From a virus (taxonomy: Duplodnaviria; Heunggongvirae; Uroviricota; Caudoviricetes), in IMG/VR virus record IMGVR_UViG_2534681655_000008: DNA of 25,735 bases, one strand, 5' to 3'. Under the pieces are notes generated by a model. The model saw only the letters and a program-made list of their open reading frames with translations, was not told the DNA's origin and searched no databases. A program made the translations under genes and the position numbers. Shown here in pieces: positions 3,892 through 13,105 of the stretch (positions are counted from its first letter, which is position 1; the number at the start of each line of letters is the position of its first letter).

Positions 3892-4168
3892 TTCTGCCAT
3901 TCCGGGACGTTACACTGTTCAGGCACCTTATAAAGCGGGTGCCGGGCGTGGAAACCCGGAATTCACCAAAGCGCACAACCGCGCTCTTGCGGTTTTTTTG
4001 TGTCATGAGCAGCATTACGCCCAAATTATGGTGGGGCGTGCAGGGCCAACTTCGGTTGGGCCGGGTTCTTTGGTGACCGGTATTTCCACCCCTGTACGTC
4101 TCACCACCAATAAGGTCGTGGAAAGCCTTGGTGGTGAGTTATTTAAAATCACCAAAGAGGCTGCCATC

Positions 4169-9417: not shown

Positions 9418-9434
9418 TTTTGTGGAGAAAGTTG

Positions 9435-9800
9435 ATGCGTGATATTCAAATGGTTCTTGAACGTTGGGGGGCATGGGTGGCAAATAATCACGAGGATGTC
9501 ACCTGGTCGTCTATTGCTGCAGGATTTAAAGGACTAATCCCTTCAAAAGTAAAATCCCGCCCGCAATGTTGTGACGATGACGCGATGATCATTTGTGGGT
9601 GCATGGCTCGCCTGAAAAAGAACAACAGCGATTTGCACGATTTATTAGTGGATTATTATGTAGGTGGTATGACGTTTATGGCGCTTGCCCGTAAACATGG
9701 GCGTTCTGATTGCTGGGTTGGGCGTTTATTGCAAAAGGCTGAAGGTGTAGTTGATGGCATGTTAATGATGTTAGAAATTGAGCTAGAGATGGATCGTTAG
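9435..9800 (+). CDS. Q: Late-gene antiterminator Q (phage 82 / 21-type)
   Basis: [35 protein letters not shown]...[19 protein letters not shown] matches recalled 82-type Q proteins; GGAG Shine-Dalgarno before ATG 9435. Confidence 0.8.
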
Positions 9801-9883: not shown

Positions 9884-10330
9884 TTAAGGTTTTAATTCAT
9901 CAAGACGTTGTTGGATAGTGTTTTTGCTTGCGTTGTCTGTTATAGCCATTTGTTGTACTTGCCCCATTGCCATTTGAGTTTCCATCCACATATCGGCCCA
10001 CACTTTTGTATCGTTATTAACTTGAGCGATAGTAAATCTGACTTTTGATACCGGGGTTGTTGAATAGGCATTTCCGATTAACATTTGTCCAAAAACAGCA
10101 GAGCCGCCTTCCAGTTCTTTACCACATATAACACTGCTGTTATCCGCGTTGTAAATTATCAACCCTCTACTATTGCAGTAATTCACAAGGGCATCTTTGA
10201 CTTTATCTTTTGTCGTATTTTGATAAACCCCCTCAGGTTTTCCTGATTGAGTTTTCTTTATCAATGGTACGGAAGAAGTACAACCTGAAATGATAGTTGC
10301 GCTAAGTAATAGTACAGTCATTTTATTCAT
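9884..10330 (-). CDS. Lipoprotein of unknown function (148 aa), AT-rich moron on the opposite strand
   Basis: Signal peptide MNKMTVLLLSATIISGC with lipobox-like ISGC; visibly AT-rich relative to flanking phage genes; own promoter-like and Shine-Dalgarno-like sequences upstream. Confidence 0.65.
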   Translation of the reverse strand: MNKMTVLLLSATIISGCTSSVPLIKKTQSGKPEGVYQNTTKDKVKDALVNYCNSRGLIIYNADNSSVICGKELEGGSAVFGQMLIGNAYSTTPVSKVRFTIAQVNNDTKVWADMWMETQMAMGQVQQMAITDNASKNTIQQRLDELKP

Positions 10331-10460
10331 GTTTCTTATCCATTGTTAAGGGTATACCCACACAATTATTTTTATTGGAGATGAATAATCAACCGTTTAC
10401 AATCGTAAAAAATCAAATATGCTGTTAAGAGTGGTTACTTCGCCACACAACTTAAACCCG

Positions 10461-10479
10461 CCGCTGAGCGGTTTTTTTT
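10461..10479 (+). terminator. Weak terminator-like hairpin CCGC-TGA-GCGG followed by T8
   Basis: Short stem and T-run read from sequence; upstream of the tRNA promoter. Confidence 0.35.
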
Positions 10480-10560
10480 GTACCTGTAAACTTGGTGCAG
10501 TACAGTAAACACGCTGGTGGACAAGTGAAAAACAGCATTTAATCAGGCCTTCTGAAGATA

Positions 10561-10589
10561 TTGCAGTATTAATTCTGTAACGTTATTAT
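10561..10589 (+). promoter_or_regulatory. Sigma70-like promoter for the tRNA cluster (candidate late promoter): -35 TTGCAG (10561-10566), 17-bp spacer, -10 TATTAT (10584-10589), GC-rich discriminator
   Basis: Hexamers and spacing read from sequence; GCGCGC discriminator immediately before tRNA +1 is typical of stable-RNA promoters. Confidence 0.45.
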
Positions 10590-10598
10590 TCTGCGCGC

Positions 10599-10674
10599 GG
10601 CCCTTTAGCTCAGTGGTGAGAGCGAGCGACTCATAATCGCCAGGTCGCTGGTTCAAATCCAGCAAGGGCCACCA
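10599..10674 (+). tRNA. tRNA with CAU anticodon, tRNA-Ile2 (lysidine type)-like
   Basis: Full cloverleaf folded by hand (7-bp acceptor, D stem GCTC/GAGC, anticodon stem, T stem GCTGG/CCAGC, encoded CCA); near-identical to recalled E. coli ileX. Confidence 0.8.
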
Positions 10675-10675
10675 A

Positions 10676-10752
10676 CTGCCACTAGCTCATCAGGAAAGAG
10701 CGTCAACCCTTTAAGTTGAGAGTGCGAGGTTCGAGTCCCCGGTGGCGGTCCA
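10676..10752 (+). tRNA. Atypical tRNA-like gene, anticodon loop CCUUUAA (nominal anticodon UUU)
   Basis: Cloverleaf folds (acceptor CTGCCAC/GTGGCGG with one G-U, D stem GCTC/GAGC, anticodon stem TCAAC/GTTGA, T loop TTCGAGT, CCA) but C at position 33, C1-G72 and one T-stem mismatch are unusual. Confidence 0.5.
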
Positions 10753-10754
10753 GT

Positions 10755-10830
<76 letters not shown>

Positions 10831-10833
10831 TGT

Positions 10834-10908
<75 letters not shown>

Positions 10909-10913
10909 GTTAG

Positions 10914-11092
10914 AGTCTTTCAGTCTGCGATGATGGGAAATCCCGGAGTGACTGAAAGACGTTTAAGTTATGAATGATCGCTTTTTTTGCAAAATTGCTG
11001 TGCAGAAATACTAACCTTCGGGCAGGCGATCATTCATAAGCACTCTGCTTTTATTCCGATTAACTGTGGGTGGTTTGTTGGATAGAGTGCTT
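10914..11092 (+). other. Highly structured non-coding segment downstream of the tRNAs (three nested inverted repeats); candidate small RNA or processing element
   Basis: Perfect inverted repeats 10915-10925/10950-10960 (11 bp), 10968-10981/11026-11039 (14 bp), 11038-11046/11084-11092 (9 bp); no plausible ORF. Confidence 0.5.
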
Positions 11093-11114
11093 CCCTTACT
11101 GTATATATCGTTTC

Positions 11115-11140
11115 GCCCGCTTTTGCGGGTTTTTCTTTTC
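11115..11140 (+). terminator. Rho-independent terminator (GCCCGC-TTTT-GCGGGT followed by TTTTCTTTTC) upstream of the lysis genes
   Basis: GC stem plus T-rich tail read from sequence. Confidence 0.6.
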
Positions 11141-11199
11141 AAATCCCTTTCATTTCTCAGTGTAAAACTACGCCATCCGTTATTTGCGGAGGTGAGGCT

Positions 11200-11415
11200 A
11201 TGAAATCCATGGACAAAATTTCAACGGGCATTGCCTACGGCACCTCCGCAGGCAGTGCTGGCTACTGGTTTTTACAGTGGCTTGATCAGGTCAGTCCGTC
11301 ACAGTGGGCTGCGATTGGTGTACTGGGGAGTCTGGTGCTGGGCTTCCTGACTTATCTGACAAATCTGTACTTCAAAATAAGAGAAGATAAGCGTAAGGCT
11401 GCACGGGGAGAGTAA
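11200..11415 (+). CDS. Pinholin / antiholin, phage 21 S21-type, dual start motif MKSM
   Basis: [71 protein letters not shown] closely matches recalled S21 (two TMDs, Met1/Met4 dual start). Confidence 0.85.
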
Positions 11416-11419
11416 TTCA

Positions 11420-11764
11420 ATGACACAAAAATATGAACTGATTGTGAAAGGGATCCGCAATTTTGAGAATAAAGTTACGGTAACTTTAGCATTACGGGAC
11501 AAAAAACGCTTTGACGGTGAAATTTTAGACCTGGACATCTCGCTGGACCGTGTTGAAGGTGCCGCGCTGGAGTTTTATGAGGCAGCAGCCAGAAGGAGCA
11601 TCAGACAGGTCTTCCTGGATGTTGCTGCCGGGTTATGTGAAGGGGATGAGCAGTCACCGGAAAAGCGCCCCATAATTTTAGAGGCGCAGGGTGTGTGGAT
11701 AACCTACAAAGGAAAACTGCCGGGAAGAATTACTGGTTCACTGAAGACTCCGCCGAAATGGTAA
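11420..11764 (+). CDS. DUF1327-like (YdfR-like) protein located between holin and endolysin
   Basis: 114 aa, protein-like; same position as ydfR in the E. coli Qin lysis region (recalled); GGGGAGAG ribosome-binding site. Confidence 0.5.
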   Translation: MTQKYELIVKGIRNFENKVTVTLALRDKKRFDGEILDLDISLDRVEGAALEFYEAAARRSIRQVFLDVAAGLCEGDEQSPEKRPIILEAQGVWITYKGKLPGRITGSLKTPPKW

Positions 11765-12107: not shown

Positions 12108-12641
12108 ATGAGCGCAAAAATCAAATACGGCCTGTCAGCTGCTGTTCTGGCGCTGATTGCTGCAGGCGCGTCTGCTCCTCAAATACTTGACCAGTTTCTG
12201 GATGAAAAAGAGGGTAACCACACTACGGCATACCGCGATGGTTCCGGTATATGGACCATCTGTCGTGGTGCCACAATGGTGGATGGTAAGCCCGTCATAC
12301 CGGGAATGAAGCTGTCGAAGGAAAAATGCGACCAGGTTAACGCTATTGAACGTGATAAGGCGCTGGCATGGGTGGAGCGCAATATTAAAGTACCACTGAC
12401 CGAACCACAGAAAGCGGGTATAGCGTCATTTTGTCCCTATAACATTGGCCCCGGTAAGTGTTTCCCGTCGACGTTTTATAAGCGGCTGAATGCCGGTGAT
12501 CGTAAGAGTGCATACGAGGCGATTCGCTGGTGGATAAAAGATGGTGGGCGCGATTGCCGCATACGTTCAAATAACTGCTATGGACAGGTTATTCGTCGTG
12601 ACCAGGAAAGCGCATTAGCCTGTTGGGGGATAGATCAGTGA
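12108..12641 (+). CDS. SAR endolysin (T4-lysozyme-like muramidase with N-terminal signal-anchor-release domain)
   Basis: N-terminal Gly/Ala-rich weakly hydrophobic segment [16 protein letters not shown] followed by the catalytic E...D...T region ([22 protein letters not shown]); pairs with pinholin. Confidence 0.8.
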
Positions 12642-13105
12642 GCAGAGTCGCCGCGATTATTTATGCTCTGGTTATCTGCATCATCGTCTGCCTGTCGTGG
12701 GCGGTCAATCATTGCCGTGATAACGCCATCGCCTACAAAGAACAGCGTGATAAAAAAGTCAGTGAGCTGAAGCAGGCGACCGCCACCATTACTGACATGC
12801 AGCAACGCCAGCGTGCTGCTGATGTACTCGATGCTAAATACACGAAGGAGTTGGCTGATGCGAAAGCTGAAAATGATGCTCTTCGGCGCAAGCTTGATAA
12901 TGGTGGTCGGGTGCTCGTCAAAGGAAAATGCTCTGTGCCATCCTCAGCCGAAACCTCCAGCGCCTCCGGCATGGGCAATGATGCCACCGTCGAACTCTCT
13001 CCAGTTGCTGGACGAAACGTTCTCGGTATCCGGGACGGAATCATCAGAGACCAGACAGCACTGAGAACGCTTCAGGAATATATCAGGACGCAATGCCTTC
13101 GATGA
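12638..13105 (+). CDS. Rz-like inner-membrane spanin (i-spanin)
   Basis: GTG 12638 overlapping endolysin stop; N-terminal [18 protein letters not shown] followed by charged coiled-coil-like region; contains an embedded +1-frame lipoprotein ORF. Confidence 0.7.
12858..13064 (+). CDS. Rz1-like outer-membrane lipoprotein spanin (o-spanin) embedded in the +1 frame of Rz
   Basis: AAGGAG Shine-Dalgarno 9 nt before ATG 12858; signal peptide [19 protein letters not shown] with lipobox, then Pro-rich [11 protein letters not shown]. Confidence 0.7.

Follow-up and report, generated by a model that had tools for sequence, protein, structure and literature searches.

The stretch of DNA analysed here, called the window throughout, comprises 25,735 nucleotides (nt) of a lambdoid Escherichia coli prophage (IMG/VR record IMGVR_UViG_2534681655_000008). 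Our subject is the segment at 10909-11140, the last item between the Q antiterminator gene and the holin gene, which appears to be a conserved structured RNA associated with the tRNA genes that precede it. A sequence-only reading of the window had described this segment as densely structured, non-coding DNA lying between the tRNA cluster and the lysis genes. The placement is correct, since tRNA-Gly ends at 10908 and a P21-type holin begins at 11200. That reading reported three perfect inverted repeats, and a repeat search returns exactly these three: 11 nt at 10915-10925/10950-10960, 14 nt at 10968-10981/11026-11039 and 9 nt at 11038-11046/11084-11092. The two small hairpins described in the loops are also present, GGGAAATCCC at 10935-10944 and CCTTCGGG at 11015-11022. 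At 11115-11140, a terminator scan of the plus strand finds GCCCGCTTTTGCGGGT and the T-tail TTTTCTTTTC.

As a plus-strand RNA, the element can be divided into three hairpins, a linker and a terminator. HP1 (10915-10960) is an optional module, in which a stem of 13 base pairs (bp; 10915-10928/10948-10960) is built around a kink-turn-like internal loop. The 5′ side of this loop reads as a C-stem GC (10927-28), a bulge GAU (10929-31) and a GA (10932-33). These are followed by the short stem UGGG-AAAU-CCCG (10934-45), a second GA (10946-47) and GU (10948-49). A basal extension of HP1, 10910-10914/10962-10966, is lineage-specific and not conserved. The first core hairpin, HP2 (10968-11039), has an outer stem of about 15 bp (10968-10982/11025-11039), a conserved 8-bp inner helix (10984-10991/11001-11008) whose loop is the 9-nt AAAUUGCUG, and the mini hairpin CC-UUCG-GG at 11015-11022. 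The second core hairpin, HP3 (11040-11092), is the most conserved module and consists of a basal helix of 8 bp continued inward by two short helices. Almost no variation is seen in its 3′ strand, GGGUGGUUUGUUGGAU (11068-11083), and GGGUGGUUUGUUGG is the sequence of the element that we single out for separating a role of sequence from a role of pairing. The A/U-rich linker CCCUUACUGUAUAUAUCGUUUC (11093-11114) is single-stranded, being unpaired in both the minimum free energy and the centroid folds. Between lineages the linker is not conserved in sequence, and it is always A/U-rich and 12-26 nt long. The intrinsic terminator (11115-11140) has a 6-bp GC stem, a UUUU loop and a U-tail. Positions 11096-11108 of the linker hold TACTGTATATAT, a perfect LexA-box half-site that is probably due to chance; as a candidate LexA site, the half-site TACTGTATAT was rejected, since it is not kept in lineages other than that of the window and lacks a second half-site.

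The density of structure is borne out by folding. The plus-strand RNA folds at -80.9 kcal/mol (z = -5.3), compared with -55.9 +/- 4.7 kcal/mol for 200 dinucleotide shuffles, none of which folded as well. The minus strand is also stable (-61.3, z = -4.9), as inverted repeats would lead one to expect. Conservation of the structure was assessed in an alignment of 37 distinct core sequences (A1) made with MAFFT, for which the consensus structure given by RNAalifold consists of two adjacent hairpins. Standard pairs make up 97.7% of the pair cells in A1, and when the 3′ partners were moved by 1-3 columns as a control only 39-50% of cells remained paired. Double changes were found in 11 of the 42 pairs (91 cells), and the observed compensatory cells and covariation score were reached by none of 500 shuffles. 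With a covariance model made from A1, 40 instances were recovered among 99 sources; in the alignment fitted to this model, double changes occur in 20 of the 42 pairs, a figure that favours the model to which the alignment was fitted, the MAFFT alignment being the independent one.

The compensatory changes are spread over all the hairpins. Pairing is kept in 97% of the cells of HP2, with double changes at 5-9 pairs of its outer stem; the inner helix of HP2 has changed in a compensatory manner at three of the homologous loci, which are numbered here with the prefix L (L149, with UUUUUAU/AUAAAAA, L142 and L190). In the basal helix of HP3, double changes are seen in 5-7 of the 8 pairs. HP3 also shows a one-sided pattern, in which the partner strand varies between A and G (AU to GU and back) and the G/U-rich strand is fixed. 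HP1 was aligned separately in 31 variants (A2), and two pairs of its 13-bp core stem have changed in a compensatory way, with a third running through GU, AU and GC. The sequence-only reading had held that a lack of conserved structure or covariation in homologues, together with the lack of a discrete transcript, would count against it; on the first point, the stems are kept by compensatory changes. The HP3 3′ strand and the apical part of HP2 are conserved far beyond what pairing would need. Most of the homologues were gathered by exact motifs taken from the element itself, and the conservation of those two motifs is thus partly ascertained.

The pairs that are neither Watson-Crick nor mismatched provide a clue to the strand. 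Over the 42 pairs, cells with G·U or U·G number 188 (in 25 pair columns) and cells with A·C or C·A only 11, a count to be read with the caution that the structure was predicted on the plus strand with wobbles allowed. The G·U bias is also seen within those stems that form perfect inverted repeats in the window. Each of the 188 wobble cells would become a mismatch if the other strand were read, or if the structure were one of DNA, duplex or cruciform. This asymmetry therefore indicates that the selected structure is an RNA of the plus strand, from which the tRNAs and late genes are also read. Taken with the covariation, a selected plus-strand RNA structure very probably exists.

The earlier statement that no credible open reading frame (ORF) is present also holds. 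The only frames are 32-45 amino acids (aa) long, start with TTG or GTG and are not conserved. Among them are a 32-aa TTG ORF on the plus strand (10987-11085) and a 43-aa ORF on the minus strand (11011-11142), the latter annotated as a hypothetical protein in ON470583. In all, the antisense frame is so annotated in two phage records. Across the 37 variants there is no conserved reading frame on either strand, and the longest frame switches strand and phase. In the window lineage a stop codon interrupts the antisense frame, as frameshifts do in other variants, and no clear 3-base periodicity is seen in the variability of the alignment columns.

The 291-nt segment is found in 540 of 5,426 complete E. 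coli genomes, always in the chromosome and mostly at more than 95% identity. None of the 40 E. coli records listed has an annotation under the match. The element is also present in five distinct phage records, including HK639; the phages vB_EcoS-689R5 and PhiR47_1 are carriers as well. The HK639 match is 77% identical and lies between annotated late-leader terminators, just after the truncated 3′ half of a tRNA-Gly. More than 100 further instances came from two-motif scans of viral contigs, a scan of one genome per species and a metagenome scan. The named hosts belong to six enterobacterial genera: Escherichia, Shigella, Enterobacter, Citrobacter, Yokenella and Phytobacter. A Q-type gene always precedes the element and a lysis cassette of variable type always follows, 60-650 nt downstream, the cassettes being of several unrelated types.

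Upstream of the element is an array of four tRNA genes on the plus strand, called by ARAGORN and matched by the Rfam tRNA family: tRNA-Met(CAT) at 10599-10674 (72.5 bits), a low-scoring tRNA-like gene 'X', here Lys(UUU), at 10676-10752 (40.4 bits), tRNA-Thr(TGT) at 10755-10830 (73.8 bits) and tRNA-Gly(TCC) at 10834-10908 (64.9 bits). A tRNA is directly upstream of the element in 70 of 84 contexts, and tRNA-Gly(UCC) adjoins the element in 62. The array seems to have a sigma-70 promoter of its own at 10562-10590 on the plus strand, with TTGCAG at 10562-10567, a 17-nt spacer, TATTAT at 10585-10590 and the GC-rich discriminator tctgcgcgc. In 53 distinct sequences upstream of tRNA-Met, the TTGCAN hexamer, the 17-nt spacing and TAT(T/C)AT are kept, as is the 9-nt G+C-rich stretch; the spacer and the DNA further upstream diverge. 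Such a pattern is characteristic of a sigma-70 promoter under selection and of the tRNA/rRNA type, whose activity we infer from it.

The tRNA-like second gene of the array (10676-10752) has a conserved body and a hypervariable anticodon loop, often of only about 5 nt. Its homologues were compared at L008, L018, L021, L028, L040, L068, L083, L089, L097, L119 and other loci, and ARAGORN calls them Lys(ttt), Phe(aaa/gaa), Arg(tct), 'Stop'(tta) or genes with malformed 2-nt anticodons. This variation could reflect an arms race with anticodon nucleases, or a decoy function. The tRNA adjoining the element is sometimes a tRNA-Gly derivative with a switched anticodon: Glu ttc in a Yokenella locus (L130, 2303-2377) and Val tac in L107 (2795-2866). 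In HK639 (L001, 2440-2492) only the 3′ half of tRNA-Gly is left, preceded by a tRNA-Asn.

The hairpins behave as separable modules. In several lineages HP1 is absent and the CCA of tRNA-Gly is followed directly by HP2. Conversely, HP1 stands alone, without HP2 or HP3, in the metagenome contig Ga0207713_1003676 (L208, 6154-6182), where the sequence after it is unrelated and the terminator is not the same. The solitary copy suggests that HP1 is an independent mobile RNA module. In one lineage (L006/L061) HP3 is swapped for another sequence, and in L189 HP3 is present without HP2, whose place is taken by a different hairpin. At two loci, L083 (from about 9650 onward) and L202 (about 2150-2200), an insertion of the IS3 family splits the element between HP2 and HP3, with the HP2 side on one contig and the HP3 side on another.

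The terminator varies more than the core. Under a strict rule, a hairpin and T-run are found 12-26 nt after HP3 in 53 of 76 contexts. Of the other 23 contexts, 17 have, as judged from the listed sequences, a version of that terminator whose stem is reduced to 4 bp. In many close relatives of the window (L009, L031, L033, L045 and others), GCGGT or GCGTT replaces GCGGG in the 3′ arm, leaving a stem of about 4 bp just before the holin gene. Across lineages, the position is filled by at least three terminator sequences that are unrelated to one another. In HK639-like late leaders, a match to STnc100 (RF02076) is found about 100-250 nt downstream of the terminator of the element (Rfam matches at L028 751-984, L147 854-1060, L030 317-514 and L046 340-546). 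Its position next after that terminator suggests that the late leader is a string of terminator-ended RNA modules. In the whole window, no STnc100 match was found at the Rfam gathering threshold.

The internal loop of HP1 deserves separate mention. The 5′ strand reads ...CUGC, GAU, GA, UGGG and the 3′ strand CCCG, GA, GUGAC..., and the sequence pattern of a kink-turn is matched at 10927-10949. As in kink-turns, there are a C-stem, a 3-nt bulge (GAU), tandem G·A/A·G pairs and a short second stem. Both GA dinucleotides and their flanking pairs are invariant in all 31 HP1 variants. The likeness extends to box C/D motifs, AUGAUGG...CGGA in HP1 being comparable to box C (RUGAUGA) and box D (CUGA). 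HP1 differs from the kink-turn consensus at position 3b·3n, which is U·G rather than U·U or A·G, and from box C/D RNAs in having no guide region. To our knowledge, no L7Ae-type protein exists in Enterobacteriaceae. The only Rfam echo for HP1 was a C/D snoRNA at chance level (15 bits, E = 7.6), which the kink-turn-like pattern probably explains. By consensus match, HP1 is thus best described as a putative kink-turn-like hairpin.

The surroundings of the array and the element are those of a lambdoid late region. The Q antiterminator gene (9420-9800) matches Pfam PF06530 (Phage_antitermQ; E = 2e-51). Between Q and the late promoter pR′ lies a minus-strand ORF of 148 aa (9884-10330) without a Pfam match, lipoprotein-like, with the signal sequence MNKMTVLLLSATIISGC..., which fills the slot of nmpC in DLP12 and is probably a moron. 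A promoter scan places pR′ (TTTACA-16-TATGCT) at 10396-10423 on the plus strand, outside the RNA discussed here. It is followed by tR′, the first late-leader terminator (10460-10480, plus strand, from the terminator scan), which is homologous to the DLP12 terminator and stops pR′ transcripts lacking Q modification. Positions 10395-10477 of the window are 86% identical to the K-12 DLP12 segment upstream of essD. The first lysis gene encodes the P21-type holin S (11200-11415, plus strand; PF04971, E = 1.4e-35), and genes for a lysozyme (12108-12641) and Rz (12623-13105) were assigned from Pfam. Elsewhere in the window, two known RNA families are matched on the plus strand at the Rfam gathering level, isrK at 3923-3999 (67 bits) and the C4 antisense RNA at 4024-4111 (83.6 bits). 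IsrK is a small RNA (sRNA) of Gifsy-1, and C4 is the P1/P7-type antisense RNA controlling an antirepressor module. These matches belong to known families and have no relation to the element at 10909-11140.

No known family accounts for the element. In a search of Rfam 15 over 10300-11500 at E <= 10, only the four tRNAs pass; all scores over the element itself are below 16 bits, and nine homologous loci are likewise without a family over the element. For the whole window, the gathering threshold admits only tRNAs, C4 and isrK. A CsrA sponge was considered and rejected, the rsmX echo being weak (29 bits against a threshold of 56) and the GGA motifs numbering only one or two. In the literature library that was searched, the sole full-text match to the invariant strings is an unrelated vaccine paper, where the string is probably a primer, and nothing relevant was found on HK639, prophage external transcribed spacers or prophage kink-turns. 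The element is therefore apparently undescribed, and belongs among the growing class of prophage small RNAs.

By analogy, two groups of RNAs seem closest in kind, the 3′ external transcribed spacer (3′ETS) RNAs of chromosomal tRNA operons and the prophage sRNAs of the Q-to-lysis leader. The former are represented by 3′ETS-leuZ of the glyW-cysT-leuZ operon and by RtT of the tyrT operon. Like them, the element lies between the last tRNA and the terminator of the operon on the same strand, and it would be a by-product of tRNA 3′ processing carrying a terminator hairpin and U-tail. It differs from both in showing no sequence or Rfam match to them, the RtT family in Rfam giving none. It also differs from 3′ETS-leuZ in being, at about 230 nt, much longer and more structured, and in being borne by a prophage rather than by the chromosomal core.

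With regard to the latter group, the Hfq-dependent prophage sRNAs PasA, PasC and PasD1 of the enteropathogenic strain E2348/69 lie directly upstream of holin-lysozyme operons (bioRxiv 10.64898/2026.05.13.724894; PMC8550237), and STnc100 is related to PasD according to the Storz-lab preprint (bioRxiv 10.64898/2026.05.13.724894). The element shares with these RNAs its place in the non-coding leader that separates Q/pR′ from the holin-lysozyme operon, its intrinsic terminator and its carriage by prophages in E. coli and Shigella. The positional analogy of the sequence-only reading, which had compared the place after the tRNAs with that of toxin cargo in Stx-type phages, is sound as regards cargo between Q and the lysis genes of lambdoid phages, PasA, PasC, PasD1 and STnc100 sharing the slot. 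Unlike the Pas sRNAs, the element is attached to a tRNA array, and the STnc100 model RF02076 has no match in the window. Identity with the Pas sRNAs (PasA, PasB, PasC and PasD1/D2) was rejected: in blastn with word size 7, the four E2348/69 Pas intergenic regions matched neither the window nor any homologue at E <= 0.01-0.1, and the covariance model of the element had no match at the E2348/69 Pas loci. The comparisons thus point to a shared position class, not to homology. Hfq binding would be compatible with the A/U-rich linker and the U-tailed terminator, but these features say no more than that. IpeX, of DLP12/PA-2, is another prophage RNA of the Q-to-lysis interval in a lambdoid prophage and is part of the nmpC 3′ end. 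In K-12, nmpC is on the opposite strand next to quuD, which sets IpeX apart from the element; it was rejected as a counterpart, since K-12 DLP12 lacks the element altogether.

We propose, with a probability of about 0.55, that the prophage has an autonomous tRNA operon of which 10909-11140 is the transcribed 3′ trailer, forming a conserved, modular, structured non-coding RNA on the plus strand. Promoter, tRNA array, structured trailer and terminator would then constitute a self-contained unit inside the Q-dependent late leader. In a lysogen, the tRNA-type promoter at 10562-10590 would drive the four tRNAs and the trailer, and transcription would stop at 11115-11140, leaving the holin silent. 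During tRNA 3′ processing, a cut by RNase E just after the CCA (AG|UU) could free a trailer RNA of about 230 nt, or about 170 nt where HP1 is lacking, closed at its 5′ end by the hairpins and at its 3′ end by the terminator and U-tail. After induction, Q-modified polymerase coming from pR′ would pass tR′, the tRNAs, the trailer and its terminator and continue into the lysis genes. The odds that the trailer is released as a discrete, stable RNA of about 230 nt seem to us slightly better than even. That such an RNA acts in trans is a more tentative suggestion, to be held with some doubt. The same core is found with many types of Q, holin and endolysin, so that a partner would more likely be a conserved host RNA or RNA-binding protein than a phage gene. 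It is also possible that the element is a protein-binding RNA.

The sequence-only reading had offered three interpretations, namely a small RNA from the same transcript as the tRNAs, a regulatory attenuator preceding the lysis genes and a protein-binding site. The first fits best, in view of the covariation, the G·U bias, the tRNA adjacency, the conserved promoter and the terminator. An attenuator is not favoured, since the terminator differs wholly between lineages that have the same core; with the terminator swapped and the core unchanged there is no conserved alternative pairing between the two, and a riboswitch-like attenuator can be rejected. The strand asymmetry of the wobble pairs disfavours a protein-binding DNA site.

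Several observations weigh against the trailer as we propose it. Fourteen of the 84 contexts have no intact tRNA within 420 nt upstream, and a few have no terminator, so that a trailer role is not obligatory. Many window-type variants have the weakened terminator stem. The -35 hexamer of the tRNA promoter fits the consensus at only 3 of 6 positions, which is the reason why the promoter scanner missed it. Promoter activity, processing and RNA stability are all inferred, the sole indication of processing being the RNase E-like AG|UU(U/A) read just after the CCA of tRNA-Gly. The RNA is almost wholly base-paired and has no long conserved single-stranded seed, which is atypical for sRNAs of the Hfq type, and when the window was searched for complements of the two invariant motifs, nothing but the motifs turned up. 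Finally, the bias from motif-based ascertainment was only partly removed by a reciprocal scan.

The main rival to a trans-acting RNA is a cis-acting element of the late transcript or of the tRNA precursor, which we regard as unlikely though worth serious attention. In one version, excision of the tRNAs by RNase P and RNase E would sever the Q-antiterminated late mRNA, and the hairpins would cap the new 5′ end, shielding an mRNA of about 15-25 kb for lysis and morphogenesis from 5′-end-dependent decay by RNase E. In another, the element would be a platform on which the tRNA precursor is processed, or would protect the 3′ end of that precursor, or would help to insulate the holin gene from the tRNA promoter. 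The tight linkage to tRNAs, the constant position upstream of a lysis cassette with any holin type, the almost complete pairing and the lack of an obvious seed or target are all consistent with a cis role. However, any stable hairpin would serve such a purpose, yet the HP3 3′ strand and apical HP2 are overconserved, and the nearly constant presence of its own terminator would be needless for a 5′ stabiliser. Moreover, HK639-like phages have more RNA modules and terminators between the element and the lysis genes, so that the element there is not the 5′ end next to the holin. A different cis function is suggested by the put RNAs of HK022 and HK639 (the latter being presumably a phage with put-like RNAs), in which two nascent hairpins bind RNA polymerase so that downstream terminators are resisted. 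Two adjacent conserved hairpins directly upstream of one or more terminators do recall this arrangement, but these phages encode Q, which already supplies antitermination, and the constitutive-looking tRNA promoter before the element would mean that antitermination expressed the holin in lysogens. The core is also about 125 nt long with a branched HP2, roughly twice the size of a put RNA as generally described, and is not next to an early promoter. We consider a put-type RNA very unlikely.

The remaining alternatives would remove the RNA altogether. If the element acted as DNA, its repeats would be protein-binding sites, cruciforms or recombination joints at a mosaic module boundary. The perfect inverted repeats in the window, the better-than-shuffled folding of both strands and the independent shuffling, loss or replacement of HP1, HP2 and HP3 could all be seen in this way. 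Double-stranded or cruciform DNA would not tolerate the excess of G·U over A·C, which extends over 25 of the 42 pair columns, and several helices exist only with wobble pairs, so that a DNA-level element is highly improbable. We consider equally improbable a remnant or neutral sequence, such as a decayed tRNA or the leftover of a lost gene, carried along with the tRNA genes. A naive alignment does show a resemblance of HP1 to the variable loop and T-arm of tRNA-Gly, the element adjoins the truncated tRNA-Gly in HK639 and one record annotates a hypothetical protein here; but at about 77% identity all the stems are kept through compensatory changes, the element spans several genera, and drift does not explain its invariant motifs. 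Least probable of all, with a chance close to negligible, is a small protein encoded by the 32-aa plus-strand or the 43-aa minus-strand ORF. Both ORFs exist, and the annotation of one of them in two phage records speaks for it; against it are the lack of conservation of the frames, the stops and frameshifts in the antisense frame, the absence of clear codon periodicity, the TTG starts and the lack of an evident ribosome-binding site.

A further extension of the tRNA-operon trailer is frankly speculative. The trailer RNA and the tRNA-like gene with the hypervariable anticodon loop might together form a prophage cassette for counter-defence or host manipulation, which we consider a long shot. 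In this view the structured RNA, with its box C/D-like kink-turn hairpin and its invariant G/U-rich strand, would serve as a decoy or inhibitor of a conserved host RNA-binding protein or nuclease rather than as a base-pairing regulator. Anticodon nuclease, RNase E, ProQ and Hfq could be named as examples of such targets, at equally long odds.

About 1 in 10 complete E. coli genomes carry this RNA, including extraintestinal pathogenic lineages such as IHE3034 (NC_017628, 5047957-5048247), and it is present in several other genera as well. It shows strong covariation, yet it is in no RNA family database and has no RNA annotation in the records examined; our alignment and covariance model could seed an Rfam family. 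The element adds a tRNA-linked class to the prophage sRNAs that cluster in the Q-to-lysis leader, and suggests that RNA cargo generally tends to land there, be it tRNAs, the present element, STnc100/PasD or PasA/C. Expression in lysogens from a tRNA promoter of the growth-rate type, if it occurs, would make the RNA a constitutive product of the prophage that could influence host physiology, and would offer a simple system for how tRNA processing makes regulatory RNAs.

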